Assembly (NCBI GenBank): GCA_964590315.1
Contig: CAZPVS010000001.1
Location: 42,926 to 106,925 of the forward strand
Reading direction: 5' to 3'
DNA length: 64,000 nt
Source of the DNA: an uncultured Candidatus Saccharibacteria bacterium
GTDB taxonomy: Bacteria; Patescibacteriota; Saccharimonadia; Saccharimonadales; JALRHH01
The notes beneath the pieces are model-generated. The model searched no databases. It saw only the letters and a program-made list of their open reading frames with translations, and was not told the origin of the DNA. Each line of letters starts with the position of its first letter. The stretch's first letter is position 1. Made by a program: the position numbers and the translations under genes. Below, in pieces: positions 1,964-56,829 of the stretch.

Positions 1964-3335
1964 AACCTAGATTAGAGGACTTAGATAGGGTAGAAGATCG
2001 TTTTTTGCCAAGCCGTAGGCCAACAATAACCCAGAATATCGTTACGATAGTTGCACTGATAAGTGCTGGCACCGACCCGAATTCGACAATGACGATTGCC
2101 GCGGTGGCAGTGACCAGGCCGCCACCCATGAACGGCTCAAAGGCCAGTTGCTTATAGGCAAAACTTTCCTTGATTTTTAAGGAATTGCTGGGGTCAGCTA
2201 GGCGGTTCATGAGCATGCCCGTAGCGGTCATTCCCATTGCCTGTCCATAGTCGGTGATACCGCGTTCGAACCAGTGGTCTTTGAAATATCGTGGCGCCAG
2301 CAACAGGAAGCAGCCGATAATCCAGAGTATGCCGGCAAATCCCAGGGTGATGAATATCGCCAAATTATGACTGATGGCATGCAGTGAAACCGTCGCGATG
2401 GCACTTGCTATCAACAGGTCAAGCGCAATGGTACTAAATACCTGAGCCGTATGTCGCTGTATGAGATGCTGGTGGTGGAATTTCCTGAGCGTCAGTTGCA
2501 GGATCAAGCCGCCGATCATGGCGAGTGGGAACAAGGGAACGAAAGCAAAGAAGCGCACATCGGTCATCCCTTGCAGGAGTACATCTTCAATCACAATCAG
2601 ACCCTTCAACAGTATCCAGCCAATTCCGATGGCAAAGGCAAAGGCCAACGCGTTGATTAGGACGGCTTTCGGATTGGTGTTGAGCCGTTGGGTGAAAGTC
2701 AGGAGATTATAGCCACTGCGCGCAAGATGACGTTGTTGTTCCTTGATGTGTTTCTGATCAGCCCTACTTGAGCGTCGGCTATGGATGTTGATCATGATGA
2801 TGCCAGTGAGTACCGCGGTGATGATGCTGAGTGTCGCCAGGCCGAGAGCGATATCCGTGCCGTCCTCCCAGCCGAGTTTTTCGAAGGTTGGCGCCAGACC
2901 TGCAGCGGTACCGTGACCCCCAGCAAAGCTAATCTCAATCAGTGATCCTGCCAACGCCGGAGCACCGAAATACGGTCCTAGGAACAGAATTGTTAACAGA
3001 ATACCAATGACGTATTGTCCCCACGCCATTGTATTGCCGAACGCGATCATGGGACCGGCAAGCCGCCACATATCTTTCCTGTTCGGGATGACACGCCCCA
3101 GAAAGAGGCCCGCAAATACGATGCTTATCAGATACTGGGGCAACTGTGCCCATATATCGGTCACTTCTGCCGAGATAGTTCCCAGTACCTGAGGCCCAAG
3201 CAAGAGGCCACCAATACCTGCGATTAAGGAACTGGGAATGAAAAATCGCTGGAGAAGACCCGAACCTCGTTTAATATAACGAGCGATTATAAGAACTACG
3301 GCAAGAACGATGAGACTGTCAACGAATGCTGGCAT
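1962..3335 (-). CDS. gltS: sodium/glutamate symporter, GltS family
   Basis: Multi-TM protein. The SFAGGHGTAAGLAP and GQAMGMTATGM blocks align with E. coli GltS motifs (SGGHGTGAAW / GFGLGATPTA). Confidence 0.75.
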   Translation of the reverse strand: MPAFVDSLIVLAVVLIIARYIKRGSGLLQRFFIPSSLIAGIGGLLLGPQVLGTISAEVTDIWAQLPQYLISIVFAGLFLGRVIPNRKDMWRLAGPMIAFGNTMAWGQYVIGILLTILFLGPYFGAPALAGSLIEISFAGGHGTAAGLAPTFEKLGWEDGTDIALGLATLSIITAVLTGIIMINIHSRRSSRADQKHIKEQQRHLARSGYNLLTFTQRLNTNPKAVLINALAFAFAIGIGWILLKGLIVIEDVLLQGMTDVRFFAFVPLFPLAMIGGLILQLTLRKFHHQHLIQRHTAQVFSTIALDLLIASAIATVSLHAISHNLAIFITLGFAGILWIIGCFLLLAPRYFKDHWFERGITDYGQAMGMTATGMLMNRLADPSNSLKIKESFAYKQLAFEPFMGGGLVTATAAIVIVEFGSVPALISATIVTIFWVIVGLRLGKKRSSTLSKSSNLG

Positions 3336-3555
3336 ATAGACTCATCATAAAGCACCTGAGACCGATGGTGCAAATACTCGCCGCTGCAGGGATAGAGATA
3401 CTTATGGTGGGGGTGGTAGGAAAGTTCACGACTGCACCCAGGCTCGGAGTAAACTCCTGCGCTTGGGTTTGTCGACCGAACCTCGGCTACGCCGTCCGGT
3501 TTGACTCCTGCCCACCTCATAGAAAAAGCCCCAGCCAAGGCTGAGACTTATTCTA

Positions 3556-3775
3556 TGGTGGCTTTGTATTCCAAAGCTCGAACCTATTTTAACACAAGAA
3601 ACTGATGTGAGCCGCGCCGCCTGCGCGGGCAAGCCCGCGCTCGCCCCACCAGAAAACACCCTTTACAACTAAAAAGAAATCTAGGCGGGGAAATCAAAAA
3701 AATAGGCAAAGGGTTTTTCTGGTGGTGGCGTGTCGCTGCAATCAGTGGGAGTAAGGAGTTTTTAGGGTTGGGAGG
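3556..3775. repeat. R1a: 220-bp copy of a perfect inverted repeat (partner at 7361-7580)
   Basis: Reverse-complementing 7361-7580 by hand gives an identical string. It starts with tggtgg plus a tRNA 3'-end-like stretch (..cgaacc) and contains the GC hairpin gcgcgggc-aa-gcccgcgc. Confidence 0.85.
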
Positions 3776-3777
3776 TC

Positions 3778-4323
3778 TTACGGCTCATTAAAACTAGAAA
3801 CGTCTACTGGTTCGTAGCCATATTTATCACGTAATATAGCGAATAGCTCTTCATGTTTCAGACCCGAAAGAATACCACCAGCGATTGCATCTTCCAGCGT
3901 GACGTCAGCCGAACAGAAGCTGGGCTGACCAAATTTTTCTTGGTCGTCTGTATTTGCAAACTCAAAGTCCACTAGTACAAGACCGGCGTGCTCCCCGCCG
4001 AATACGTCCAGCTCACCTTCGAAGCCCTCGTACGTCAATGGCACGCGCAATTTTTCAATCCTACGCGTAGAAGCACCCAAGAGTGCATCGAATTCTTCTT
4101 TTGTCAGCCCGATAGTTTCCTCTAGCTGTTGAGACGGATCGTTATCAACAGGTGTTTTTTTGGTGATCTCATACGTATTGCCTTTTTGACGCAGACGCAG
4201 CTTTGGGTGGTCTGATACCTCTGGTATATAAGCATCAATCATACGTGTCGGTTCACCAGATATATACTGCGTGGGTATCTCTGGGCACAAATACGTTTTT
4301 TCAAATTCCATAGAACTAGCCAT
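3778..4323 (-). CDS. CYTH-domain protein (triphosphate tunnel metalloenzyme family)
   Basis: The N-terminal MEFEKTYL start and the overall ~180-aa acidic pattern are typical of the CYTH/CyaB-like fold. The stop lies 2 bp from R1a. Confidence 0.55.
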   Translation of the reverse strand: MASSMEFEKTYLCPEIPTQYISGEPTRMIDAYIPEVSDHPKLRLRQKGNTYEITKKTPVDNDPSQQLEETIGLTKEEFDALLGASTRRIEKLRVPLTYEGFEGELDVFGGEHAGLVLVDFEFANTDDQEKFGQPSFCSADVTLEDAIAGGILSGLKHEELFAILRDKYGYEPVDVSSFNEP

Positions 4324-4425
4324 GATTATAAAAAATCTCCTTTGTTATATTACTTCTTTCATACGGATTTATAATCTATATTGTATCATATTTACCCCTG
4401 TAATGAGATGAGGTATAGTGAATCC

Positions 4426-5484
4426 ATGAAGAATCTTAAAGTTATTGTGGTTGGCATTGGCAAACAGGCCTCAGAAGATCATATCCCTGCATTACTGGCG
4501 TCTGCTAGCTATGAGCTAGTAGGTCTCATCGAAAAAGATACCAACAAACATCACGAGATAAAGAGACAATATGGCGTTGCTGTGCATGCATCAATCGAGG
4601 AAGCTATCGCCACAGATACGCCCGATATTGCTGTCCTGACTCTGCCGCACAGTGAATACCGACATGCGATAGAGCTACTCGCCGCAAAAGGCGTTCACAT
4701 CATCAAAGAAAAGCCATTTGCTGTCAGCCTCGACGAAGCGATACTATATCAACGCTTGATGGAGAAGTATGGCGTCAGTATTCATGTCACGTTGCAACGA
4801 CGCTTCAACCCAATATTCACCAGCGTGCCTCAGCTGATACGTTCGATAGGCAAAGTCTTTGCTATTGAGGGTAAATATACGTTCAATATCGGCCATTTGG
4901 ATGAAGGGTGGCGCGCAAACTCTTACCAGTCAGGTGGCGGTGCACTCATTGACATGGGATACCACATCGTGGATCTACTAGTCTGGTATTTTGATTTGCC
5001 GAGTTATATCACAGCATCGACTGCTGATGGTAATCGAGAAGGTCAAAAATATGATGTCGAAGACACTGTATATCTTAATTTTCGATATGGAGAAGATGAT
5101 GGAGATTCGATGCTAGGCAATGTCATAGTGAGTCGAGTATTTCCCGAGAAGCAAGAATATTTGCATATGTATGGCACGCGAGGTAGTGTGCGCGTAGAAC
5201 GTGGACGAGTTGAACGTTTTGATATCAATGGTGAACCAGTCGAATCACTTGTACGAGATGGGCAGTGGCCATCCGCACTAGTTGAGCAATACGAAGTCTT
5301 CGCGTATGAGATTACCCACGACAAGGATAGTCGTGCAAACGGGAGAGTGGTGACGTTACACGACCACCTAAAGCATATGGCAATCGTAGAAGCCAGCTAT
5401 CAATCTGCCAGAAGTAAATCAACCACCAACGTGCAAAGCATCTACAATGAACTAGTACGGCAACTACAGGAAAGGAATGAATAA
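4426..5484 (+). CDS. Gfo/Idh/MocA family NAD(P)-dependent oxidoreductase
   Basis: N-terminal Rossmann motif VIVVGIGKQASEDHIPAL. The track start at 4381 is TTG; the ATG at 4426 has a gagg RBS. Confidence 0.7.
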   Translation: MKNLKVIVVGIGKQASEDHIPALLASASYELVGLIEKDTNKHHEIKRQYGVAVHASIEEAIATDTPDIAVLTLPHSEYRHAIELLAAKGVHIIKEKPFAVSLDEAILYQRLMEKYGVSIHVTLQRRFNPIFTSVPQLIRSIGKVFAIEGKYTFNIGHLDEGWRANSYQSGGGALIDMGYHIVDLLVWYFDLPSYITASTADGNREGQKYDVEDTVYLNFRYGEDDGDSMLGNVIVSRVFPEKQEYLHMYGTRGSVRVERGRVERFDINGEPVESLVRDGQWPSALVEQYEVFAYEITHDKDSRANGRVVTLHDHLKHMAIVEASYQSARSKSTTNVQSIYNELVRQLQERNE

Positions 5485-5486
5485 GC

Positions 5487-6719
5487 ATGAACTTAGCGAT
5501 TAATGGAGGTGTCCCTGTGTCTGCTGCTCCCCTGTACTTTGACTGGCCGATTATCAACGAGTCTGTTGGACAAGCAATCATCACGCAGCTCCACGAGAGT
5601 ATATCGATTTACGATGACTCAGGCATCTTTCAACAATTTGAGACTGAATTTGCAGAATATCATCATATGCCACATGCACTGCTTGTTAACTCTGGAACAT
5701 CGGGTCTACAAAGTGCGTACTACAGTATGATGTTGCAGCCAGGCGATGAAGTAATATGTCCAGTATACACATTCCACGCTACAGTCAGTCCGATGATGCA
5801 TTTTGGTCTCGTACCTACCATGGTTGACTGCGATATGTATGGACAAATTGATCCTGCGCTTATAGAAAAAGCCATCACTGATAAAACCAAGGCGGTTATT
5901 ATCACGCACATGTGGGGCTATGCCGTCGATATCGAGAGAGTTCGTGAAATTTGCGACAGACACAGCCTGCTCCTTATCGAAGATTGCTCTCATGCGCATG
6001 GTGCAACATTCGGTGGCCAGCCTCTTGGTTCGTTTGGTGATATATCCGTCTGGAGCTTACAGGGTCAGAAAATCATCACTGGCGGCGAAGGTGGTATGAT
6101 GCTATTTAAAAACAAGCAGCACTTCGAACGTGCTGTGCTGTACGGACACTACAATAAGCGCTGCAAACAGCAAGTTGAAGATGATTCGTTGAAAGCGTAT
6201 GCGCTGACAGGTGCTGGCCTAAAGCTGCGAGCAAGTACATTAAATGTCGCGATGGCACGGCATTATTTCAATCAAATTACTACAATCAACACCGAAAAAT
6301 CCCAAAATGCGGAGTGTTTTAGTCGTGGCATTCAATTGATTGACGGCATTCAAGTTCTTGGGCCACGACCTCATTCAACCAATAGCTGGTACGCACAAAA
6401 TATTATGTACGATGAGGCGGTCGTTGGTGTACCGCGCGAGCGGTTCGTCGCCGCACTCCATGCTGAGGGTCTTGTGGAAGCCGATATTCCTGACTCAACT
6501 GGACCAATTCACCGCGAGCCTTTGTTCAATGAGCCGCACGTTGTTTTCCCATACTTATATAATTCGTCACTTCACAACAAGGATCGTACATTTGAACGTG
6601 CGGAATCTTTTTATAGTCGGATCATCAAACTACCCGTCTGGACAGCGACTGACAATGCCACTGATCGATATATAGAGGGATTCAACAAGGTTATCGCCAA
6701 TATTCATGAGTTACAATAA
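5487..6719 (+). CDS. DegT/DnrJ/EryC1/StrS family sugar aminotransferase (PLP-dependent)
   Basis: Fold-type I aminotransferase blocks (IITHMWGY, DCSHAHGAT, LQGQKIITGGEGGM) match the DegT family. Translationally coupled to the neighbouring genes. Confidence 0.8.
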   Translation: MNLAINGGVPVSAAPLYFDWPIINESVGQAIITQLHESISIYDDSGIFQQFETEFAEYHHMPHALLVNSGTSGLQSAYYSMMLQPGDEVICPVYTFHATVSPMMHFGLVPTMVDCDMYGQIDPALIEKAITDKTKAVIITHMWGYAVDIERVREICDRHSLLLIEDCSHAHGATFGGQPLGSFGDISVWSLQGQKIITGGEGGMMLFKNKQHFERAVLYGHYNKRCKQQVEDDSLKAYALTGAGLKLRASTLNVAMARHYFNQITTINTEKSQNAECFSRGIQLIDGIQVLGPRPHSTNSWYAQNIMYDEAVVGVPRERFVAALHAEGLVEADIPDSTGPIHREPLFNEPHVVFPYLYNSSLHNKDRTFERAESFYSRIIKLPVWTATDNATDRYIEGFNKVIANIHELQ

Positions 6720-7374
6720 AGAGGGTTTACTAGTATCATTTGAAGGTCAAGACGGATCCGGTAAATCAACCTTACTTGAGCTGGTCGGTGCCGCACTAGA
6801 AGAGAATGGGTACGCGGTAGAGATTGTGCCTGAGTTTTCAGAGCGAGTAATTGGCTCCTACCTCGTCAATCAACTCACTGAAAACAAGTTCTTGCGCATG
6901 AATCGTGATGGTACGAGCGCCTTGACAGAGACATTGTATATCGTTGCTGACCTTTACTCGCAAGATGAGTTTGATATCAAGCCAGCGCTTGCTCAAGGAA
7001 AAATCGTCTTAAAGGAGAGGCACCTTGATTCGATATTCGCCTGCCAAATTCCAAAAATACTTGCAGACTATCCTGATAGAAGAGAGGGTGAACTAACAGG
7101 GTGGCTTGACAGTCTTTGTAGTAGTCTAAAAGAGCCTGACTTGACAGTATTTCTTGATGTTCCCGAAATTGAGTTACGCAATCGAATAGTCGGTAGAGGT
7201 GAAGCTATCAGCGAGAGCGATGTCACCGTATTCAAGTCAAGACAGGCTATATATGACCGAATTGCAGCCACTGGAATTAAACGATGGATGAGAGCAGATA
7301 ATCGGCATAGCCCCGACCGAACAGCAGAAGTCATTATTAGAAAAGTAGAAGAAATCCTTTCCTCCCAACCCTAA
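6706..7374 (+). CDS. thymidylate-kinase-like P-loop nucleotide kinase
   Basis: VSFEGQDGSGKST matches the Tmk P-loop IxxEGxDGxGKsT. The last four codons and stop (SSQP*) lie inside repeat R1b. Confidence 0.6.
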   Translation: MSYNKEGLLVSFEGQDGSGKSTLLELVGAALEENGYAVEIVPEFSERVIGSYLVNQLTENKFLRMNRDGTSALTETLYIVADLYSQDEFDIKPALAQGKIVLKERHLDSIFACQIPKILADYPDRREGELTGWLDSLCSSLKEPDLTVFLDVPEIELRNRIVGRGEAISESDVTVFKSRQAIYDRIAATGIKRWMRADNRHSPDRTAEVIIRKVEEILSSQP

Positions 7375-7580
7375 AAACTCCTTACTCCCACTGATTGCAG
7401 CGACACGCCACCACCAGAAAAACCCTTTGCCTATTTTTTTGATTTCCCCGCCTAGATTTCTTTTTAGTTGTAAAGGGTGTTTTCTGGTGGGGCGAGCGCG
7501 GGCTTGCCCGCGCAGGCGGCGCGGCTCACATCAGTTTCTTGTGTTAAAATAGGTTCGAGCTTTGGAATACAAAGCCACCA
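7361..7580. repeat. R1b: inverted copy of R1a
   Basis: Exact reverse complement of 3556-3775. It ends with ccacca, which is shared with the start of R2b. Confidence 0.85.
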
Positions 7581-7680
7581 AAATGGAACTTTCTGAGATT
7601 TGGTCGCCCGAATGGGCGGCTTTTTCTCTGGCCGCGCGCAGCGCGAGCCAGCTGTTTGCTTGGGGGGAATTGGGAAATTG
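7575..7680. repeat. R2b: 106-bp inverted copy of the tRNA 3' flank (partner at 9363-9468)
   Basis: Exact reverse complement of 9363-9468 by hand comparison. Confidence 0.8.
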
Positions 7681-7712
7681 ACGCGCCACAGGTGGCGCGT
7701 ATTTTTGTTTTG
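7681..7712 (+). terminator. rho-independent terminator after the cassette operon
   Basis: Palindrome acgcgccac-ag-gtggcgcgt followed by atttttgttttg. Confidence 0.5.
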
Positions 7713-7751
7713 TAAGTCGGCATAGCCGACACGCTCCGCGTCTTCGCTTCG

Positions 7752-7760
7752 TGATATAAT
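7752..7760 (+). promoter_or_regulatory. extended -10 promoter (TGaTATAAT) upstream of the recombinase gene
   Basis: tgatataat sequence. It lies ~135 nt upstream of the ATG at 7896. Confidence 0.4.
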
Positions 7761-7768
7761 GATAAGTG

Positions 7769-7854
7769 CAATACAAATCAATCGGCAAAACTTTTCTATT
7801 TGAGAACTCAAATAGCCGTTTCGCACAAGTTAGGTTTTGCCTGATTTGTATTGC
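7769..7854 (+). promoter_or_regulatory. nested inverted repeats in the recombinase leader; candidate operator, att-like site or structured 5' UTR
   Basis: gcaatacaaatca..gcaaaac pairs with gttttgc..tgatttgtattgc. An inner palindrome ctatttgag-aa-ctcaaatag is enclosed. Confidence 0.4.
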
Positions 7855-7895
7855 AGCGAAGCGGCTTTTTGAGTGCAAGTGGAAAGGTGGCGTAT

Positions 7896-9506
7896 ATGTT
7901 CCCAAAACTCATATATTTCTTGTATGTCCGTAAGAGTACCGATGTAGAGGACAAACAAGTGTTATCTATTGCGGCGCAAATTGCCGAACTCAAAGAGTTC
8001 GCCGCTCGCATGGGCATATACATCGTCGAGGCCATCATAGAAAAGCAGACAGCCAAAAAGCCAGGACGAAAAAAGTTTAACAAAATGCTGGAGCGCATAG
8101 AAAACGGCGAAGCTAACGGGATTTTAGCGTGGATGCCTGATCGACTGTCGCGCAATTCGATAGATAGCGGCAAGATTATTTATATGCTCGACGAGCATGT
8201 TTTACTCGACTTAAAGTTTCCGCATTTCTGGTTTGAGAATACGCCACAAGGAAAATACATGCTGGCTAATGAGTTCAATTCGTCCAAGCAATACGTGGAC
8301 AATTTGTCGGTAAACACCAAGCGAGGGCTACGCCAAAAGGTGCGCGAGGGCTATTACCCAAGTCGTGCGCCGATTGGCTATTATAACGACATCAAGACCA
8401 AGACGGCAAAAGTGGACAAACGGCATGCGCCGATTGTCCGTCAAGCGTTCGAATTGTACGCTGGCGGCGATAAACGATTAGACGAAATCGCGGACTTTCT
8501 GTATGCCAATGGCATACAGACACGCAGCGGTAAAGTGCGCGGCAAGAAAACGACAGGCAAAAAGCCGTATCATAAAAATCGTATCAAGCGTATGCTGACA
8601 AATCCGTTTTATTATGGACATTTTTGCTATCTCGGCGAAATCCATGAGGGCAACCATAAAGCTATTGTCTCGAAACGGCTTTTTGACCAAGTGCAAACGG
8701 TGCTAGAGCGTCGCGGCAAGCCGCGCCACAAGGCGAAGAATGAGCCAAAACCGCTCTGCGGTTTGGTATATTGCTCGTGCGGCATGATGTTCACCTCAGA
8801 ACGTCAGACAAAACGACAGAAAAATGGCAATGTGCATATCTATGATTATTATCGTTGCACGCGCAAGAGCAAGACAGTTGTTTGTCGTGAGCCACATATT
8901 CGCGCCGAAGAGCTGGACAAACAACTGTCTGCGTTACTGGCTGGCTTTTCTTTACCCATTGCGTGGGCGGACAAACTGCGCGAGCTAATGCGCAAGGACG
9001 AGATGAGTGAAAAGGTGGACTATGAACGTATTATCGGGAATGATAAAGACAAAATCGCGCAGTTGTCTGAGAAAATGCAGCGATTGCTTGATGGCTACCT
9101 AGACGGCGACATTGAGCGCGAATTATACCAAGACAAACGCGCGGAATTACTTGGACAGAAGAAACGGCTGGAAGAAAAAATTGAGCAAGCGACGGTGGGC
9201 GTTTTGACGTGGGTCGAACCGATGAATACATGGCTTGAGCGAGCCGTTTCTATCTGTAAAATCGCAAAGAGTGATGACTTACTCGCCAAAAAGTCGCTTT
9301 GCCTCGAAATCTTCGGGTCGAACCTAAAAATGCAAAACAAAAATGTCGTCGCACGCGACGACCAATTTCCCAATTCCCCCCAAGCAAACAGCTGGCTCGC
9401 GCTGCGCGCGGCCAGAGAAAAAGCCGCCCATTCGGGCGACCAAATCTCAGAAAGTTCCATTTTGGTGGGGGTGGTAGGAATCGAACCTACTACCAAGTGG
9501 TTATGA
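7896..9506 (+). CDS. large serine recombinase (resolvase catalytic domain + recombinase domain + zinc ribbon + coiled coil)
   Basis: YVRKSTDVED (Ser nucleophile) and LAWMPDRLSRN resolvase motifs. Zinc ribbon CGLVYCSCG..YYRCTRK..C. Long coiled coil. RBS ggaaaggtgg before the ATG at 7896; the track start 7851 is TTG. The last ~48 codons run through repeat R2a and antisense into the tRNA. Confidence 0.85.
   Translation: MFPKLIYFLYVRKSTDVEDKQVLSIAAQIAELKEFAARMGIYIVEAIIEKQTAKKPGRKKFNKMLERIENGEANGILAWMPDRLSRNSIDSGKIIYMLDEHVLLDLKFPHFWFENTPQGKYMLANEFNSSKQYVDNLSVNTKRGLRQKVREGYYPSRAPIGYYNDIKTKTAKVDKRHAPIVRQAFELYAGGDKRLDEIADFLYANGIQTRSGKVRGKKTTGKKPYHKNRIKRMLTNPFYYGHFCYLGEIHEGNHKAIVSKRLFDQVQTVLERRGKPRHKAKNEPKPLCGLVYCSCGMMFTSERQTKRQKNGNVHIYDYYRCTRKSKTVVCREPHIRAEELDKQLSALLAGFSLPIAWADKLRELMRKDEMSEKVDYERIIGNDKDKIAQLSEKMQRLLDGYLDGDIERELYQDKRAELLGQKKRLEEKIEQATVGVLTWVEPMNTWLERAVSICKIAKSDDLLAKKSLCLEIFGSNLKMQNKNVVARDDQFPNSPQANSWLALRAAREKAAHSGDQISESSILVGVVGIEPTTKWL
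9363..9468. repeat. R2a: native 3' flank of tRNA(CAU), including its CCA end
   Basis: Inverted partner of 7575-7680. Ends at tggtgg, which is the reverse complement of the tRNA ACCACCA terminus. Confidence 0.8.
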
Positions 9507-9538
9507 GCCGCCTGCTCTAACCGATGAGCTACACCCCC
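9463..9538 (-). tRNA. tRNA with CAU anticodon (elongator Met or lysidine-modified Ile2)
   Basis: Reverse complement GGGGGTGTAGCTCATCGGTTAGAGCAGGCGGCTCATAACCACTTGGTAGTAGGTTCGATTCCTACCACCCCCACCA. Cloverleaf has a 7-bp acceptor stem and a GTAGG/CCTAC T-stem, with one mismatch in the anticodon stem. It is close to E. coli tRNA-Ile2. Confidence 0.8.
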
Positions 9539-10148: not shown

Positions 10149-10223
10149 CGCGGGGTAGAGCAGTGGCAGCTCGTGTGGCTCATAACCACAAGGTCGCAGG
10201 TTCGAGTCCTGCCCCCGCTACCA
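10149..10223 (+). tRNA. tRNA-Met (CAU), initiator-like
   Basis: CGCGGGGTAGAGCAGTGGCAGCTCGTGTGGCTCATAACCACAAGGTCGCAGGTTCGAGTCCTGCCCCCGCTACCA. Near-identical in layout to E. coli tRNA-fMet, including the unpaired 1:72 position (C:U). Confidence 0.85.
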
Positions 10224-11282: not shown

Positions 11283-12152
11283 ATGTGGTTTATTTACGCC
11301 CTACTTGGAGCAATCGGTAAGTCTTACTCGGGATTTTTTAGGAAGAAAATCGCCAAAAGTGTCAGTGGCTCAATGTACATCTGGATTGGGTATACGTTAA
11401 TACTTGTTGTTATGACGCCCTTCATGGTTCCACAAGCTTCAGCTGTTATCGATTCGTTGGTGAAATACCCGCTTGTTGTATTTGGAGCTGCCTTCTCTTA
11501 CATGGTGGCTACTCAATTAAACCTTGAGGCTTTAAAGCGTGAGGACTTATCCTATACAGCACCTTTAAATGCTTTTGTACCTGTCTTCACACTCGCAATA
11601 GCCGTTCCTATTCTTGGTGAAACACCGCCCAGGTTTGGCTTACTTGGCATAGCAATCGTTGTAGCAGGCGCCTACATTGTTAGTATTAAGCCTGAACGAA
11701 TACATTGGTATGACCCCCTTAAGCGATTGGCTACCAGTACTGGGGCGCAGCTAACACTGGGTGTAGCACTTTGCTATGCAATCAACACAATTCTTATGAA
11801 GGTTCTAACAAATAACGACTTTAACGCTTTTGTAGTTTTATACGTAACCACGCTCGTTGGGTGGCTACTACTTATTAACGTACCTATATCTCGTAGAAAT
11901 GAGTTTAAGGAGATTAAAAGTTCTGACAGGTTCTCAGTCCTAGGTGGTAGTTTAGGCTCATTTGCTGGTAGCTTTTTCCATATTCTTGCGCTATCAAACA
12001 CATACACCAGTTATGCAACTGCAGTACGCCGTCTTGATTCTGTAATATCAGTTCTACTGGGCTGGCGCTTCTTAAAAGAGAAAAGTATTCGTGTTAAGTT
12101 AGTGGGCAGCATTGTTATGACCATCGGTGCTGCTGTAATGCTAGTTGCCTAG
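11283..12152 (+). CDS. EamA/DMT-superfamily transporter
   Basis: Ten TM helices with a duplicated EamA-domain pattern (GETPPRFGLLGIAIVVAGAYIV). Confidence 0.7.
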   Translation: MWFIYALLGAIGKSYSGFFRKKIAKSVSGSMYIWIGYTLILVVMTPFMVPQASAVIDSLVKYPLVVFGAAFSYMVATQLNLEALKREDLSYTAPLNAFVPVFTLAIAVPILGETPPRFGLLGIAIVVAGAYIVSIKPERIHWYDPLKRLATSTGAQLTLGVALCYAINTILMKVLTNNDFNAFVVLYVTTLVGWLLLINVPISRRNEFKEIKSSDRFSVLGGSLGSFAGSFFHILALSNTYTSYATAVRRLDSVISVLLGWRFLKEKSIRVKLVGSIVMTIGAAVMLVA

Positions 12153-12235
12153 TTGTTCTAGTCTGCTGCGGTAGAGTAACTTAGCCCTGTTCTCTCTAGA
12201 GAGTTGTATCCATCTACTTAGTTCCGTAAGGATAT

Positions 12236-12301
12236 CGTTCCAATTCGATTGTACTTGGGCTACCATAAGCACTTTGACCTCTATTAATCAGAGGTCTTTT
12301 A
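12236..12301 (+). promoter_or_regulatory. copy 2 of the conserved motif + terminator hairpin
   Basis: cguuccaauucgauuguacuugggcuaccauaagcac followed by the hairpin gaccucu-auuaauc-agagguc and UUUU. Confidence 0.5.
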
Positions 12302-12303
12302 TA

Positions 12304-12332
12304 TTGACAATTCGTATATTTTGTGCTAATAT
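12304..12332 (+). promoter_or_regulatory. sigma70-like promoter (TTGACA-17-TAATAT) for the 12339 gene
   Basis: Consensus -35 box, 17-nt spacer and -10 box immediately after copy 2. Confidence 0.45.
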
Positions 12333-12338
12333 ATAATT

Positions 12339-13664
12339 ATGGACCAAATACCTGATTCGGAATTAGTTTCATCCGCTCGTAGGCATGATGTCGAATCTAA
12401 AATATTTGATGGTAGCGCGAGTAAGGCTGAAGTCCGCGATTGGTATTTCTCTTTAGACCCCCTGAGGGACGACTACTATGCATCCCTTACAGAATCTTCT
12501 TTAGGTACAACTGAATCGGACCTAGTTCTTCATAACGTTGAGTATTCGCTCAGCCAGGTAGCATTGTATGGCACAGCTGCACAAATACTTTCGGATGATA
12601 AAATCGAACATACTAAGCTTAGTGTTCCAATTAATACCTCTCCTTTTGGTCGGCAAAAATCTGAAGACACTAAGCCTCAGTTCAAGCATGTAGAATACAG
12701 CCAATTCAGTATTACCAAGCTCAAAGATATTGAATCTATAAATGAGCTGAACATTGCTCAGGACTGTTTTTCTCGAGCAAGTCGATATTGTTTAGATGTA
12801 CTACGCGTACTAGAGAATAACGAATCCGAGAAGAAATTCGTAGACTCTTTATTCGAGCTACAACGTTACTATGATCGACAGTCTGTTTATGCAAATAAAA
12901 CCGTAACCAGCCTAGCAGCAGGGTGGTTATTAACTGGATCAGAAGAGCTCAGGCCTGAGCCTCATGTACTCGACTCGATTATAGATGCTCAAATGCAGTG
13001 GCTTGGAAGCCAATTTTATAACCTGGGCATCAATAAAGATTATTCATCCCTTAAACCGGCTTTCTCAAACACAATTGAGACGATTGAAGAGTTTATAATT
13101 AATCCGACGAAAAATGCGGGTCGTAAAACTGTAAAAGATCCAGCTATGAAGGGTTATTTGCATGAATTGCTTTGGATGCTCGACGCAAACTTCGTCTTAA
13201 GTAATAAATATGAAAATCTGGGACCATGTGTGGTCCCGGCTCCATTAGGTTTTGACCGTCCCGAAATCAATCATCCAGAGTTGAAACGAGGCTACGACAT
13301 GGTATTGGTAGGTCACCACGCAAGAATGCCGATACAGCTAAAATCTGGTGCATTTAGTGCAAGCCGACATAAGTATGATGAACGGATATATCTAGCACAG
13401 GAAACCAACTTCAAAGATGTGGATTTAAGAAGACTGTCATCGAGAATTAATGATTACAGAAAATGGATAGAGAGTGATTTCAATGATAGCTCTATGGCTG
13501 ATAAGATTTCATCCAGAATTTTAGCAACAGTACCTGAAGCCATTGTCGCCCTCGAAGAGTATGATGCTATTGGTCGGGTTGATGAGGCGGTAGTTAAACA
13601 ATTAGGGAAGCAAGGCGTTCAGTTCCTGTCTAACACTTACCCGATTTATAAGCCTAAGAAGTGA
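12339..13664 (+). CDS. hypothetical protein, 441 aa, no recognisable domain
   Basis: Long AT-rich ORF with its own promoter. Island cargo. Confidence 0.5.
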   Translation: MDQIPDSELVSSARRHDVESKIFDGSASKAEVRDWYFSLDPLRDDYYASLTESSLGTTESDLVLHNVEYSLSQVALYGTAAQILSDDKIEHTKLSVPINTSPFGRQKSEDTKPQFKHVEYSQFSITKLKDIESINELNIAQDCFSRASRYCLDVLRVLENNESEKKFVDSLFELQRYYDRQSVYANKTVTSLAAGWLLTGSEELRPEPHVLDSIIDAQMQWLGSQFYNLGINKDYSSLKPAFSNTIETIEEFIINPTKNAGRKTVKDPAMKGYLHELLWMLDANFVLSNKYENLGPCVVPAPLGFDRPEINHPELKRGYDMVLVGHHARMPIQLKSGAFSASRHKYDERIYLAQETNFKDVDLRRLSSRINDYRKWIESDFNDSSMADKISSRILATVPEAIVALEEYDAIGRVDEAVVKQLGKQGVQFLSNTYPIYKPKK

Positions 13665-13764
13665 GAATTAGTAACATTTTCATTCCTCTATCTCTCGGGT
13701 AGAGCAGCCCTCAGACCGTCTGCTTCAGAAAATTGTATCCACCTTACTATTTCTTTGCATATTT

Positions 13765-13832
13765 CGTTCCAATTCGGGCGTACCTGGGCTACCAAGAGAA
13801 ATTTGAAACCGTCCCATCTGGGGCGGTTTTTA
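13765..13832 (+). promoter_or_regulatory. copy 3 of the conserved motif + terminator hairpin
   Basis: cguuccaauucgggcguaccugggcuaccaagag followed by the hairpin ccguccc-aucu-ggggcgg and UUUUU. Confidence 0.5.
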
Positions 13833-13966
13833 ATTTCTCCTTGTATCGGCGCAAGCCCCTAACCTGCGTCCTGCCAGCTTCAGATGGCGAGGTCGCACGG
13901 TTCGTTCGTAACGAGCACGCGCAGGTGCTTGCACCGAGCATGCTCGGCAACGTGCCGCAGGCAGCC

Positions 13967-14124: not shown

Positions 14125-14760
14125 ATGGCCAGTGCTGCAAAACTACATACCAGGATTAAGCGCTATTTCATATTTTTTTCTATCGTAGGACTGCTACTGT
14201 TGTCGCTCATAGTTCTGCTAACGGTGAATCTGGTGCGGCAACACGAGCTGGTGAGCAAATATGAGCTTCTAGAGAAGATTGATAATCAAGCGTGCCGCTA
14301 TCTTGACAGACAAGCAGGGGTGAACGGAGGATTCGATCTTGAAGCTGACTCGCCGCAGGATAAGCCTCGTCTGACATACTGGTGTCTGACCGGCGAGCGA
14401 GTGTTTGCCAGACAAGTGCAGGATAAGTTTGTGGATGAGTATGATTTTGGCGCCCGCGTGCTGTACTTTAGTTCCCGAGAGGAAGCAGAGAAACATGCGC
14501 AGCAGAGCCTGAGTCCTCTCCGAAACTGGGGAGTTGATGAAGAAGGCCAACGCAACGGTATGCCACAAACATCTCGGTTTACGTTCATTGTCAGCGATGT
14601 TGAGCATCCGTATTTTGACGCGTATACCGTCAAAGCAAACGCTGTATTACGGGTTAGCCTCCCGTGCGGCACCCCTGAAGAGCGGTATGATCTTGTGGCC
14701 TGTCAGGCCCAGGCTGACGCACTATTAAATAGGGAACTCAAGGGAATAAACGTCCTGTAG
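14125..14760 (+). CDS. hypothetical membrane-anchored protein
   Basis: N-terminal TM helix (FIFFSIVGLLLLSLIVLLTV), then a soluble domain with conserved Cys residues. No recognisable family. Confidence 0.45.
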   Translation: MASAAKLHTRIKRYFIFFSIVGLLLLSLIVLLTVNLVRQHELVSKYELLEKIDNQACRYLDRQAGVNGGFDLEADSPQDKPRLTYWCLTGERVFARQVQDKFVDEYDFGARVLYFSSREEAEKHAQQSLSPLRNWGVDEEGQRNGMPQTSRFTFIVSDVEHPYFDAYTVKANAVLRVSLPCGTPEERYDLVACQAQADALLNRELKGINVL

Positions 14761-14847
14761 AACAGAGGTGAATACAGGACAGTACTACTAATAGCATATG
14801 CTTAGTGGTATTGTAGATTTACTACTATTTAGTAAGAAGGAGTCGAA

Positions 14848-15417
14848 ATGTTAGCACGAATCATTGAAGAAGCAACGGATGCGGTAGCAGCAGCGGTGCG
14901 TGGTGTGGACAATATTCTCGATGCAGTGACAAATAGTGTTAAAGATCAGGTTATTAACGTCTTACAGGGTACCGGAGAGGTTGCAGGGGCTGGCGTAGAG
15001 GCAGTTGCTTCGGTGGCTAGTGGTGCTATCCGCGGCGCAGGCCAGGTCGGAACATCATTAACCGAGACAGTAGCTGGTACGATGAGTGGAATCGTGAAGG
15101 GTGTCAGCCAGTTGGGTGGTGATGTCATCGGTGCTATCCATGAAGGCGCAAAAGGCGTTGTAAGCGCCACGGCAGAAACAGGTGGCGACATTGGAACGGC
15201 TGCAGTATCTGCGGTGAGCGGAGCCATCAAAGCAGCAGGCGACGTAGGGGCAGACACTGCGGCGGCTGCGAAATCTGCGGTCGGTGGCGTGCTTGATGCG
15301 GCGACCAGTGTAGGTGGCAGCGCTGTAGACACAGTTCGCAAGGCGCTTCTCGGTGCAGCCGCACTCCCTCGGGATGTGATTGAATCCGCACTGAAGGGTA
15401 GCGACAAAGAACGCTAA
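14848..15417 (+). CDS. Gly/Ala/Val-rich protein built of ~11-residue periodic repeats
   Basis: At least 11 tandem 11-mers (e.g. SGAIRGAGQVG / SGAIKAAGDVG) with a charged N-terminus and C-terminus. Resembles amphipathic 11-mer-repeat proteins. Confidence 0.5.
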   Translation: MLARIIEEATDAVAAAVRGVDNILDAVTNSVKDQVINVLQGTGEVAGAGVEAVASVASGAIRGAGQVGTSLTETVAGTMSGIVKGVSQLGGDVIGAIHEGAKGVVSATAETGGDIGTAAVSAVSGAIKAAGDVGADTAAAAKSAVGGVLDAATSVGGSAVDTVRKALLGAAALPRDVIESALKGSDKER

Positions 15418-22189: not shown

Positions 22190-22253
22190 GGTGACATTTA
22201 CCCTTGTGCCTTGTTATACGCCACAAAATGCTTTTGTCAATAATATTCATGCA

Positions 22254-22303
22254 CTAAAAAGACGGACCGATGTCCGTCTTGCTGTTTCCATATGGTAGCG
22301 GCG
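22254..22303. repeat. 50-bp direct repeat (partner at 23524-23573) containing a terminator hairpin and a tRNA 3'-end-like tail
   Basis: ctaaaaagacggacCgatgtccgtcttgctgtttCcatatggtagcggcg versus the partner, with 2 mismatches. The gacggac/gtccgtc hairpin is followed by TTTT on the minus strand. Confidence 0.6.
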
Positions 22304-22375
22304 CTATTAACCACTTGAAACCTGATAAAGCGTGAACTGATTCTAGAGATTCTGGTTATTAGGCGAAAAATACTA

Positions 22376-23299
22376 TCATCGACTGATGCGCACTAAGCGC
22401 GTCTCGCCATTATAAATGACCTTCAAATCAATAATCTTTTCGTTGTTTCTAACGTCTGCTTTAATCTCACCTTGTCTTGTTATGCCTTTGTTTATATCAC
22501 CACCTAGGTCAGATTGCTTATACGGATAGTAGGCATAGTTGAAGGGTGGAACGTAACGAGTACTCAACAACGAATCATAATCAAAATGTGTTTGATCTGT
22601 CTTTAGCTCTCGTCCAGTGTCAGGTAATAATGAAATAGTAATCTTCGAGCTATCGATATTATTGCTGGCGGTCAGTTCATAATTAAGGCTTAGAGTTTGG
22701 TTGTCTGCGATATATTTATTAATCGAGTTACGTGAATCATTTCTCCACTCACAATATCGTCTAGTTGGGTTGTCTTTTTCCCACTGTTCTTCGTCGTGGA
22801 ATACCCATTTGCCCGTCGCCTCATTAAAGTAATCTTGTGGTTGATTATTATCTTCTGGATATTTTGAGCAATCCTCTCTTGCGGTCAAATCTCCATACCT
22901 GCTGATTTTTTCTTGCGGGACGTTAATCTCTACCGCCTTAAAAGATGGTTCTTTTACGGTTAGTACAAAATCTGAAAAATTAATTGCATCGCTAGTGGTA
23001 TAAATCTTATCGTTTAGGTGTTGCTGATACTTGTTGTAGGCAAAGAATCCGCCACATACTAGTAGGAGCAGTAGTATTGGTAATACAAGCCACTTAACGG
23101 ACTTCTTGCCCTTAGACCTCACGACATTTACTGCAAAAAACGCGTACGCAGATAGAAGGATTATTGAGCCCATAATCAGAGACATTCCGATAGTGCTAGA
23201 GGGGTCAATGAAAAAAGATGGTATTAGAATACCCAATATGAGTACAGTCAATCCGATAGCTACTAGATGTACGGGTTTTATATTCAGTCTTTTGCTCAT
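22376..23299 (-). CDS. hypothetical membrane protein (N-terminal TM helices + extracytoplasmic domain)
   Basis: The only gene lying between the two 50-bp direct repeats. Confidence 0.45.
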   Translation of the reverse strand: MSKRLNIKPVHLVAIGLTVLILGILIPSFFIDPSSTIGMSLIMGSIILLSAYAFFAVNVVRSKGKKSVKWLVLPILLLLLVCGGFFAYNKYQQHLNDKIYTTSDAINFSDFVLTVKEPSFKAVEINVPQEKISRYGDLTAREDCSKYPEDNNQPQDYFNEATGKWVFHDEEQWEKDNPTRRYCEWRNDSRNSINKYIADNQTLSLNYELTASNNIDSSKITISLLPDTGRELKTDQTHFDYDSLLSTRYVPPFNYAYYPYKQSDLGGDINKGITRQGEIKADVRNNEKIIDLKVIYNGETRLVRISR

Positions 23300-23523
23300 T
23301 GACTCATAGTATACAAGACTAATAAAAACCCTCTAGTGTGATTTTTGTGTCTCCGCATCAAGCTAAATAAACGTACCCTGTTCATTTAAATCGTGCTAAT
23401 TCGCACTGATATGTCAATGGAATCCACCAAGCCTTAGATAGTAGCTACGATTGCTGATTCCTTATAACTCTGTGGCGGTGTCTCATGCTACTTGCCCCGA
23501 GCAGGTATTGACTTGTCAGTTAA

Positions 23524-23573
23524 CTAAAAAGACGGACTGATGTCCGTCTTGCTGTTTTCATATGGTAGCGGCG
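23524..23573. repeat. 50-bp direct repeat, second copy
   Basis: See 22254-22303. Confidence 0.6.
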
Positions 23574-23604
23574 ACTAGGCTTGAACCACTGACCTCAGGC
23601 TTAT
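23563..23604 (-). pseudogene. degenerate 3' half of the tRNA-Met gene
   Basis: tggtagcggcgactaggcttgaaccactgacctcaggcttat resembles tRNA 23686-23762, but the T-stem no longer pairs. Confidence 0.4.
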
Positions 23605-23668
23605 ATTGCATATAAACTGCAGCCATGCTCGAAGCGAGCTTCTGCGCGTAGCTTTGTTTATGAGTCCT

Positions 23669-23782
23669 ACAATTCAGAACATTTTTGGTAGCGGCGACTA
23701 GGCTTGAACTAGTGACCTCAGGCTTATGAGTCCTGCGCTCTAACCAGCTGAGCTACGCCGCCCCAAAAATGTTCTGAATTGT
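23669..23782. repeat. 18-bp inverted repeats immediately flanking the tRNA-Met gene
   Basis: acaattcagaacattttt on one side and aaaaatgttctgaattgt on the other. Confidence 0.5.
23686..23762 (-). tRNA. tRNA-Met (CAU), elongator-like
   Basis: Reverse complement GGCGGCGTAGCTCAGCTGGTTAGAGCGCAGGACTCATAAGCCTGAGGTCACTAGTTCAAGCCTAGTCGCCGCTACCA. Closely resembles E. coli elongator tRNA-Met. Confidence 0.8.
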
Positions 23783-23786
23783 TAAT

Positions 23787-23812
23787 GCTCTAACCAGCTG
23801 AGCTACGCCGCC
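23787..23812 (-). pseudogene. partial duplicate of the tRNA-Met 5' end (acceptor + D-arm)
   Basis: gctctaaccagctgagctacgccgcc is identical to the 5' portion of the tRNA. Confidence 0.4.
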
Positions 23813-39510: not shown

Positions 39511-39536
39511 TGGCACTCTGGACTTTTGAGTGCTAG
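39511..39536. promoter_or_regulatory. CIRCE operator (HrcA binding site) upstream of hrcA
   Basis: TGGCACTC-N9-GAGTGCTAg versus the consensus TTAGCACTC-N9-GAGTGCTAA. A tacaat -10 box follows. Confidence 0.75.
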
Positions 39537-56193: not shown

Positions 56194-56570
56194 GTTTTGC
56201 TTTTTTACTGGTTATGCTTATAGTACGTCTTTCCTGCAGATTGGTCTAGTATTAGAGTTCTATGTAAATCAATGTTCAGGAATATCTACAATAAAATCAT
56301 TCAAAAATAATCTCAGTACTCATGTTCAATCCCCAAGACAGCTTCCGTTAAATGAAAAAGTCCTACGTTTTCAGGCAGAAATTATTTCAATGGAGGGATA
56401 GGAGGACTCTCTCACATTCCGCGGGACTAGAACTTCTGCCACGGCAGCATAGTTGCCAGGTGAAAATTCTCTTGCAAAATGCCACTGGCAATCCCGTTCA
56501 AGTCCTCACTGAATACTGGGCCAAATAAAATACCCACTTTTTAGGGGGGCACTTTATTTGGAGGGTCCAG

Positions 56571-56596
56571 TGGGACTCGGTCACTTCCAGCGACCC
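56571..56596 (-). pseudogene. duplicated 3'-end fragment of tRNA-Lys
   Basis: tatttggagggtccagtgggactcg is identical to the tRNA 3' end plus 8 nt of flank. Confidence 0.4.
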
Positions 56597-56752
56597 CGTA
56601 GCAACATCTTTGCAAACTAGTTTGCAAGAGTTGACTCCCTTGCAAAATGCCACTGGCATTTTTCACCCCCAACACCATTCTGGCGCGTCGTGGGTTAAAG
56701 CTCAATAGAACTGCCAAATAGAAAACCCCACCTTTCGGCGAGGTTCTCTATT

Positions 56753-56829
56753 TGGAGGGTCCAGTGGGACTCGAACCCACGACACCCTGCTTAAAAGGCA
56801 GGTGCTCTAACCGGCTGAGCTATGGACCC
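56753..56829 (-). tRNA. tRNA-Lys (UUU)
   Basis: Reverse complement GGGTCCATAGCTCAGCCGGTTAGAGCACCTGCCTTTTAAGCAGGGTGTCGTGGGTTCGAGTCCCACTGGACCCTCCA. Perfect anticodon stem CCTGC/GCAGG. Confidence 0.85.

Follow-up and report, generated by a model that had tools for sequence, protein, structure and literature searches.

A putative serine-recombinase element with an inverted attP-like junction at a tRNA-Met gene of an uncultured Saccharibacteria bacterium

Genes and repeats beside the tRNA-Met gene

The DNA analysed here ("the window" in the following) is a stretch of 64,000 nucleotides (nt) from an uncultured Candidatus Saccharibacteria bacterium (assembly GCA_964590315.1, contig CAZPVS010000001.1, positions 42,926 to 106,925) that carries, next to a tRNA-Met gene, a four-gene enzyme cassette and the gene of a large serine recombinase (LSR), each enclosed by a perfect inverted repeat (Table 1). 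The arms around the cassette, A and A', are 220 nt long, 100% complementary and 3585 nt apart, and in a repeat search they form the longest repeat of the whole window, far above chance. The arms around the LSR gene, B and B', measure 106 nt, overlap the 220-nt repeat by the 6 nt CCACCA, and the outer one terminates in tRNA-Met. A previous sequence-only reading of this locus had described an amino-sugar cassette, invertible or mobile, that might vary the surface glycans of the cell, and its account of the 220-nt repeats and of the order and strands of the four genes holds, as does its view of the cassette as a self-contained module whose outermost genes run into the repeats. The neighbouring second repeat, the LSR gene and the tRNA-Met gene had escaped that reading. 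The stop codon of the CYTH-like gene lies 2 nt from the left arm, the right arm holds the final four codons and the stop of the kinase gene (7361-7374), and the genes in between are tightly packed, with a gap of 2 nt from the oxidoreductase stop to the aminotransferase ATG and an overlap of 14 nt between the aminotransferase and kinase genes.

Table 1. Features in and around the island at the tRNA-Met gene (window coordinates)
Feature	Position	Strand	Remarks
18-nt direct copy of the tRNA-Met 3' end (TGGTGGGGGTGGTAGGAA)	3405-3422	none	exact matches read in the sequence
Intrinsic-terminator-like hairpin with T-tract	3526-3549	-	terminator scan; 6 nt left of the core at 3556
Repeat A, predicted outer P' arm copy	3556-3775	none	begins with core TGGTGG 3556-3561 (predicted attL)
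CYTH / triphosphate-tunnel-metalloenzyme-like gene, 181 aa	3778-4323	-	cargo; Pfam and PDB matches
AT-rich divergent intergenic region	4324-4425	none	promoter-like site 4391-4419 (+)
Gfo/Idh/MocA NAD-dependent oxidoreductase gene	4426-5484	+	cargo; reading frame open from 4381
DegT/DnrJ/EryC1 pyridoxal-phosphate-dependent aminotransferase gene	5487-6719	+	cargo; profile and PDB matches
Thymidylate-kinase-like P-loop kinase gene	6706-7374	+	cargo; last 14 nt inside repeat A'
Repeat A', predicted inner P' arm copy	7361-7580	none	ends in core CCACCA 7575-7580
Repeat B, predicted inner P arm copy	7575-7680	none	with A' predicted intact inverted attP 7361-7680
Terminator-like hairpin in repeat B	7602-7621	+	mirrored 9441-9422 (-) in B'
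Second terminator-like hairpin	7681-7700	+	terminator scan; shields the LSR gene from upstream transcription
Large serine recombinase (LSR) gene, 536 aa	7896-9506	+	Resolvase, Recombinase and Zn-ribbon domains; identical protein P0121 (100%, 536 aa)
Repeat B', predicted outer P arm copy	9363-9468	none	ends in core TGGTGG 9463-9468 (predicted attR); encodes the conserved LSR C-terminus
tRNA-Met (CAT), putative integration target	9463-9538	-	encoded 3' CCACCA is the core common to three junctions

The six letters at which the two repeats overlap are those of the tRNA 3' end, whose CCACCA recurs at 3556, at 7575 (reverse complement) and at 9463. Around these copies, the left junction runs from the flank over TGGTGG into A, the A'/B junction (when reverse-complemented) from B' over TGGTGG into A, and the right junction from B' over TGGTGG into the body of the tRNA. 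Judged by sequence, these are the forms expected of the attachment (att) sites attL, an intact but inverted attP, and attR, with B' as the presumptive P arm and A as the presumptive P' arm, which sets the island at 3556-9468 (5.9 kb) and would make the 220-nt repeats two copies of the P' arm. The recombinase gene adjoins the tRNA gene and the island is bounded by repeats of the tRNA 3' end, as in tRNA-linked islands in general; its unusual trait is the apparently intact attP that lies, inverted, inside the integrated element. We therefore regard it as likely that 3556-9468 is an integrative element inserted by the LSR at the encoded CCACCA 3' end of tRNA-Met.

The recombinase itself is by its domain architecture an LSR of the integrase type, with Pfam matches to PF00239 (E 9e-16), PF07508 (E 1.5e-16) and PF13408 (E 5e-8), the catalytic motif YVRKS at residues 10-14, and an integrase as its top PHROG match (E 7.5e-76). 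The final ca. 48 codons of its frame traverse repeat B' and then the tRNA gene in antisense.

Transcription terminators seem to have been exchanged along with the tRNA flank. The hairpin at 3526-3549 would be the original tRNA-Met terminator, displaced by the insertion and forming attB's outer half; in reverse complement, 3526-3555 begins with tagaataagtctcagcc... and would follow the tRNA-Met CCACCA at an empty site. On the minus strand of B', the terminator-like hairpin at 9441-9422 now stands directly behind tRNA-Met as a replacement terminator from the P arm. The perfect identity of the B arms ends sharply ca. 105 nt from the core, and past this boundary the hairpins of the two sides (7681-7700 on the plus strand, 9345-9362 on the minus strand) differ in the stem but agree in the T-tract, the one on the B' side encoding conserved LSR residues. 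We considered a role of repeat B at the RNA level, through pairing around the LSR mRNA, and rejected it because terminator-like sites separate B from the LSR gene at either end.

Within repeat A we find a GC hairpin (gcgcgggc-aa-gcccgcgc, 3623-3640, with its mirror copy at 7496-7513), a long hairpin of ca. 20 bp (3646-3725) and a cassette-associated end of 39 nt (3737-3775). The GC hairpin is thus present in each arm as the sequence-only reading had it, but the terminator function considered for it there is not supported: it lacks a U-tract and was not scored as terminator-like, and the terminator-like sites lie in or beside the second repeat. The innermost 39 nt of both arms (3737-3775 and 7361-7399), which include the last kinase codons, travel with the cassette and not with the recombinase module, and they form inverted repeats also in two relatives (L001, at 1-39 and 3608-3646, and L004; L-numbers denote fetched relative loci), which suggests that the repeat boundary has crept into the cargo.

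To the left of the island, the 18-nt tRNA-Met copy sits 134 nt from the left core and was probably left by an earlier insertion, perhaps at this very tRNA. In a BLAST comparison with all fetched loci, 3336-3560 gave no similarity, Rfam reported only four tRNAs in the window and nothing credible in 3300-3800, and a 46-nt piece of repeat A had no match in the genome collection searched. A second tRNA-Met (CAT) gene at 10149-10223 (+) points away from the one at 9463-9538 (-), with a DivIC/FtsB-like gene between the two, and only the first is occupied by the element.

A family of elements at the CCA ends of tRNA genes

A search of metagenome contigs with the LSR yielded 74 loci that were then examined in a scripted repeat survey. 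The repeat around the LSR gene was found at 31 of the 42 loci with an LSR at least 53% identical to that of the window, seven of the remaining 11 being contigs too short for both arms, and more than 20 loci have the two repeats together, some of them from lineages in which the LSR is only 49-59% identical. In all, about 40 independent metagenome and genome loci share the double-repeat layout. In every locus inspected, A' is directly followed by B, and B' extends over the 3' end of a tRNA gene; the targets comprise nine types of tRNA (Met, Glu, Gly, Leu, Thr, Val, Arg, Lys and Gln). Among 19 tabulated loci, the internal site consists of the right-end P arm and the left-end P' arm around a core of 5-7 nt in 18 (L024 does not fit), and the core is the reverse complement of N-CCA, again in 18. 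The right end runs into the tRNA body wherever the contig extends that far, with the exception of L016, and outside A' of L084 we noted by eye a hairpin and T-run like those in the left flank of the window. By sequence logic, this is what recombination of attP with attB would leave behind, i.e., hybrid attL and attR sites with a short common core.

The arms are matched over ca. 105 nt for B and 170-240 nt for A across the family, and they evolve in concert, since within an element their identity is 0.91-1.00 (mostly 1.00), whereas arms of different elements are on average 0.70 (A) and 0.68 (B) identical. Fourteen elements have in common, in their P' arms, the GC hairpin and the hairpin of ca. 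20 bp, both with compensatory changes. As a separate observation, the loop of the long hairpin (3646-3725 and 7411-7490 in the window, 6378-6620 in L068) is reversed relative to 12 other elements, and the ends of its stem bear extra copies of a core-like motif (CCACCAG ... CTGGTGG); this hairpin segment may itself have been inverted.

The enzyme cassette was found again at four places with 83-97% protein identity (L001, L002, L004 and L005). Two of these are Logan contigs with the cassette alone and inverted repeats at the ends (39 nt at 95% in L001, 30 nt in L002), which reach both termini in L002 but only one in L001, the second arm there lying 18 nt short of the contig end. L004 belongs to a Saccharimonadales genome and has the same double repeat at a tRNA-Glu gene, and at L005 the LSR sits at tRNA-Arg, with only the CYTH-like gene left and an IS30 transposase gene in place of the other cassette genes. 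Since the CYTH-like gene of L005 has remained beside the arm, we considered a function in the element for it, e.g., as directionality factor; we rejected this, as it accompanies the oxidoreductase-aminotransferase pair in unrelated contexts and as an IS30 gene is found in L005 where the rest of the cassette would be. L005 also has, at 2519-2761, 6057-6469 and 14450-14964, many copies in both orientations of a repeat of ca. 60-90 nt (TTGTCATCCTCCGAA...ACGGGGGATCCAGTAT) that resemble miniature repeat elements. At L009, a second set of A-like and B-like inverted repeats (11556-13942) lies just past the tRNA-Leu and tRNA-Cys genes beside the first element, so that two elements of this LSR family may occupy neighbouring tRNA genes.

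The repeats are not specific to the cassette, since the presumptive att arms bracket unrelated cargo in dozens of related elements, which are 4-9 kb in size with 0.8-6.3 kb of cargo. These other cargos include genes for PheRS-like, Trp/TyrRS-like and class II aminoacyl-tRNA synthetases, an APH-family kinase with a 2'-5' RNA ligase, TetR with an ABC-2 exporter, a two-domain ABC ATPase, an MFS transporter, ABC-F and efflux proteins, DNA methyltransferases with RAMA or HinfI, an M78 peptidase with DUF4411, UDG, a reverse transcriptase and an Rce1-like protease. They are accessory genes of the resistance and defence kind that are unrelated to one another. The window and L004 agree to 91% in the cassette but to only 74% in the LSR module, from which we conclude that cargo moves between elements, and the conserved arms would supply the homology for such exchange in either orientation.

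Both orientations of the cargo relative to the LSR gene occur among close relatives. L004 is opposite to the window at 91% nucleotide identity, and L066, L069 and L072 are opposite to L068, L071 and L073, with cargo that is 98-99.6% identical. The LSR segment, too, occurs flipped relative to the tRNA: the loci L084-L091 show the order tRNA-Leu, B, LSR gene facing away from the tRNA, B'A, cargo, A' and terminator flank. This orientation is resolved because contigs assembled at k=141 span the 105-nt repeat, whereas in the 193-nt repeat they break off after exactly 140 nt (k-1). The tails of LSR proteins within one 90% cluster read variously into tRNA, P' arm or other DNA. Like an inverton, the segment between the inverted repeats is thus found in both orientations, here in separate assemblies and not in one population, and flipping within one population would be the natural extension. 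It lacks the hallmark of an inverton that switches expression: the cassette holds the divergent region with its promoter-like site, so that inversion need not change expression, and both outward gene ends meet identical sequence. The proposed mobility or invertibility of the locus is therefore essentially upheld, with an LSR island in a tRNA gene and an orientation that differs between relatives, while the repeats on which the proposal was built are not specific to the cassette.

Under the reading that we favour, the LSR would insert the 5.9-kb element into the 3' end of tRNA-Met, and the integrated form would run from flank/core/P' (A, attL) over P'/core/P in reverse (A' and B, attP) to P/core/tRNA (B', attR). 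Its two modules, the cargo of four enzymes and the recombinase, would each lie between inverted copies of one att arm. If a circle formed, its B'-A joint would read as the exact reverse complement of the A'-B joint, and two 320-nt inverted repeats would separate an LSR segment of 1682 nt from a cargo segment of 3585 nt. Recombination between the copies could then flip either module, swap cargo between elements and keep the copies identical, be it by homologous recombination across the perfect arms, by LSR action at the common cores, or by both. The enzyme cassette would be one of many exchangeable accessory cargos, and its flipping a by-product of the architecture rather than an expression switch.

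Several points weigh against this interpretation. A passive model of this kind does not explain why an intact inverted attP is kept across LSRs that are ca. 50% identical. No gene for a recombination directionality factor is conserved in the family, as the LSR gene is the sole gene common to elements with otherwise unrelated cargos, though such a factor may be encoded outside the element. To our knowledge, LSR integrases do not recombine attP with attL or attR, and flipping driven by the LSR is thus a conjecture. We saw neither an excised circle nor an empty tRNA site, the source genome and its close relatives lying outside the searchable collections. The 18-nt tRNA fragment left of the island and the 103 nt that follow it (3423-3525) do not fit the model, and where repeats are longer than k, the orientation in short-read data can be the choice of the assembler, which concerns the group with 243-nt arms and possibly the window itself.

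The enzyme cassette and its possible product

Homology does not reveal what the cassette makes. Its CYTH-like protein scores 19.9 bits with Pfam CYTH (cut-off 23.2) and has, with EFEKTY at the N-terminus, a shifted form of the ExExK-type motif, and residues 5-144 match the triphosphate-tunnel enzymes 2fbl and 3typ of the PDB at E ~1e-9 (8e-10). The oxidoreductase likely starts with the ATG at 4426, in agreement with the gene call of 352 aa in L001. Its best NCBIfam match is iolG (61 bits, cut-off 355), UDP-GlcNAc 3-dehydrogenase follows with 51 against 450, and many Gfo/Idh/MocA enzymes of the PDB match it about equally, among them the WlbA structures 3q2i and 3q2k at E ~1e-13. For the aminotransferase, PseC is the best NCBIfam family (164 bits, cut-off 423), and the top PDB matches are generic DegT enzymes and 2-deoxy-scyllo-inosose aminotransferase (E 1e-38), with WbpE among the weakest (E 1e-18). 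The kinase passes the cut-off of Pfam Thymidylate_kin (65.7 bits against 27) and stays under that of TIGR00041 for dTMP kinase (65.9 against 83.25), which makes it a Tmk-like enzyme by family, its specific substrate not being assigned by homology. With every NCBIfam match of the cassette proteins far under the equivalog cut-off, the WbpB/WbpE-like pathway proposed earlier finds no backing from the family search. GC content and GC content at third codon positions (GC3) differ only mildly from those of the flanks, and this comparison, which the sequence-only reading had suggested as a check, is not informative in a heterogeneous window.

PADLOC recognised no known defence system in the cassette, and its matches among the PHROGs are generic aminotransferase and kinase families only. 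A phage DNA-modification origin was likewise considered and has no support, because the viral contigs searched gave no relatives of either the CYTH-like or the kinase gene.

The oxidoreductase-aminotransferase pair has a CYTH-like neighbour in every context examined, with CYTH homologues in L001-L004, L080 and L083 and a weak CYTH-like neighbour (Pfam E 0.007) in L081/L082, and its third partner is the kinase or, in one context, a CTP_transf_like gene. The conserved core of the cassette thus seems to be a CYTH triphosphatase with a dehydrogenase and an aminotransferase. In L001-L004 and L080-L083 the pair is found among restriction-modification, UDG, metal-resistance and other unrelated genes, and neither there nor in the cassette is there a glycosyltransferase, flippase, acetyltransferase or sugar-1-phosphate nucleotidyltransferase gene. 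Many Patescibacteria homologues of the aminotransferase (44-49% identical, e.g., P0016, P0032 and P0039) are proteins of ca. 716 aa in which the aminotransferase is fused to a radical-SAM domain, and this amination chemistry may therefore have a second type of dehydrogenase partner.

By analogy, a triphosphatase together with an enzyme like a nucleotide kinase points toward nucleotides or phosphorylated small molecules. The routes of Pur10/Pur4/Pur7 and AdgB-E lead to 3'-amino-3'-deoxynucleotides, take a nucleoside triphosphate (NTP) as substrate and include an NTP hydrolase in the set (PMC9239236, PMC11641026). They follow the same logic of oxidation and then transamination, and their NTP hydrolase parallels the CYTH partner and the nucleotide-kinase-like gene of the cassette, although theirs is a Nudix enzyme and the likeness to Pur10/Pur4 is an analogy of pathway logic. 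The four enzymes might, by this parallel, make a chain terminator of the 3'-amino-3'-deoxynucleotide type and not an amino sugar. Oxidation of an alcohol followed by transamination of the ketone is equally the scheme of WbpB/WbpE (UDP-sugar), NtdC/NtdA (kanosamine), and inositol dehydrogenase with scyllo-inosose aminotransferase; the cassette shows no NCBIfam match at equivalog level to any of these sets and has no genes for sugar activation or glycosyl transfer.

Other readings, known systems and significance

A bolder proposal, which we hold to be unlikely, sees the inverted attP as a working part of a yet undescribed mechanism of transfer or switching in Patescibacteria and, independently of this, the cassette as the source of a chain-terminator nucleotide. 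As possibilities under this heading, a single strand that folds to rebuild duplex attP would suit hosts that acquire DNA by natural competence, or the LSR might flip its own gene and the cargo through the three co-oriented CCA cores.

Improbable to a greater degree, in our estimate, is that the retained inverted attP functions as such, either by rebuilding a duplex site from a folded single strand or by letting the LSR flip its own gene as a switch. A folded single-stranded attP is known from phage CTX, and it speaks for the idea that the architecture is kept in LSR lineages only 49-59% identical with arms matched for sharply bounded lengths, that the inner copies always abut so that the A/A' and B/B' stems would stack into a continuous attP, and that compensatory changes in both hairpins of the P' arm suggest that single-strand folding matters; the terminators on both sides, moreover, make an RNA-level role of repeat B unlikely. 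Direct evidence is lacking, though, and gene conversion between inverted repeats yields perfect arms as well. Serine recombinases also require a duplex on both partners, the folded form would have flaps at the crossover, and incoming single-stranded DNA would not allow expression of the LSR.

Two adjacent transposons, namely the cassette with its 220-nt ends and the serine recombinase as transposase with 106-nt ends, are a very improbable alternative. Each module does resemble a gene set between long terminal inverted repeats, and some large serine recombinases act as transposases (TnpX, TndX). Yet there is no target-site duplication beyond the core, the modules are always adjacent in the same order with one common core, the outermost junctions are always with a tRNA 3' end on one side and, on the other, with the sequence that once lay downstream of it, and the cargo module is never found apart from the LSR module save on contigs broken at the repeats.

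Scarcely any weight is left for the proposal of the sequence-only reading that the repeats invert or lose an amino-sugar cassette and thereby vary the surface glycan as a phase-variable locus. The inverted repeats do flank the cassette, both orientations occur among relatives, several pathways of nucleotide-sugar amination pair a dehydrogenase with a DegT aminotransferase, and the WlbA structures are among the matches of the oxidoreductase. Against this stand the dozens of elements with the same repeats around unrelated cargo, the lack of glycosyltransferase, flippase and sugar-activating genes in the cassette and six other contexts of the pair, the NCBIfam scores far under equivalog level, the weak match of the aminotransferase to WbpE compared with 2-deoxy-scyllo-inosose aminotransferase, and the promoter region within the segment, due to which inversion should not switch expression.

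Least probable of all is an assembly artefact of chimeric joins or collapsed strain variants: the two repeats are exactly 100% identical and abut on a contig of an uncultured lineage, and assemblers do break or mis-route at such repeats (as in the cassette-only contigs L001 and L002 and many LSR-only contigs of 1.7-2.1 kb), but independent assemblies from different assemblers (with contig names of the types NODE_, k127_, k141_ and Ga00) show the layout again, some arms are slightly diverged (90-99%) as is not expected of a collapse, and the repeat boundaries coincide with the tRNA CCA core across the tabulated loci.

The integrative element that we favour has its closest counterparts among the known LSR integrative elements and prophages (integrases of the phiC31/Bxb1 type, the Ccr recombinases of SCCmec, and tRNA-linked cargo islands such as tycheposons), with which it has in common the recombinase architecture, hybrid attL/attR sites with a short core, the insertion at a tRNA 3' end, the small size and the accessory cargo. 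Unlike these counterparts, the elements described here retain an intact inverted attP, keep their modules between near-perfect inverted repeats of 100-245 nt, use the universal CCA end of nine tRNA types as core, have an LSR frame that crosses the attachment site, and form a family that has no conserved directionality-factor gene. The searchable literature gave us no account of a serine-recombinase element that, once integrated, still holds an intact inverted attP.

The predicted circle would, like the yeast 2-micron plasmid and plastid genomes, consist of two unique segments between identical inverted repeats, and with the 2-micron plasmid it would further have in common inverted repeats that hold the recombinase target, a recombinase gene in one of the segments, and the occurrence of both orientations. 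Flp of the 2-micron plasmid is a tyrosine recombinase, however, and that circle replicates as a plasmid, whereas the element here is seen only in integrated form. The Hin/Gin/Cin/Pin systems likewise have a serine recombinase gene by or in their segments and sites that share the inner half and core and differ in the outer half; these sites are ca. 26 bp long, need an enhancer and Fis, and switch flagellin or tail-fibre genes, in contrast to the arms of 100-245 nt, the large serine recombinase and the absence of an apparent expression switch in our case.

Elsewhere in the window, further repeats were observed near tRNA genes. A tRNA-Met at 23686-23762 (-) lies amid fragments of its own sequence, one of 42 nt from the 3' half (23563-23604) and one of 26 nt from the 5' part (23787-23812), and a 51-nt direct repeat (22253-22303 / 23523-23573) brackets an open reading frame of 307 aa that has no Pfam match, with no LSR there; the region 22253-23812 has the look of a further insertion into a tRNA gene, or of its remains. 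The tRNA-Lys gene at 56753-56829 (-) has a partial upstream duplicate including its 3' end (56528-56579 versus 56722-56773, 81%) and a second repeat pair nearby (56450-56490 / 56618-56658), and 56450-56829 may be another tRNA-linked insertion scar. Repeats in a coding region at 38753-39493 comprise 132 nt at 82% (38753 / 39047) and a perfect pair of 66 nt (39338-39403 / 39428-39493). A 34-nt motif (TGGCACTCT...GAGTGCTAATTT) occurs three times, at 39511, 43225 and 46309, with an internal palindrome followed by T-rich sequence, and its copies may be a common terminator or operator.

Saccharibacteria and other Patescibacteria have tiny genomes, and how they gain genes is little understood. The window leads to a group of widespread elements that target the universal CCA end of tRNAs and carry cargo of the resistance and defence type, spare aminoacyl-tRNA synthetases among it, and their inverted attP with two flippable modules may account for the frequent assembly breaks in genomes of these bacteria. 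The family offers compact recombinases with predicted att sites and poses the question of what lets an element with a serine integrase move when it has no known directionality factor. For the cassette, the question shifts from surface glycans to a nucleotide- or phosphometabolite-directed amination that is carried as accessory cargo.

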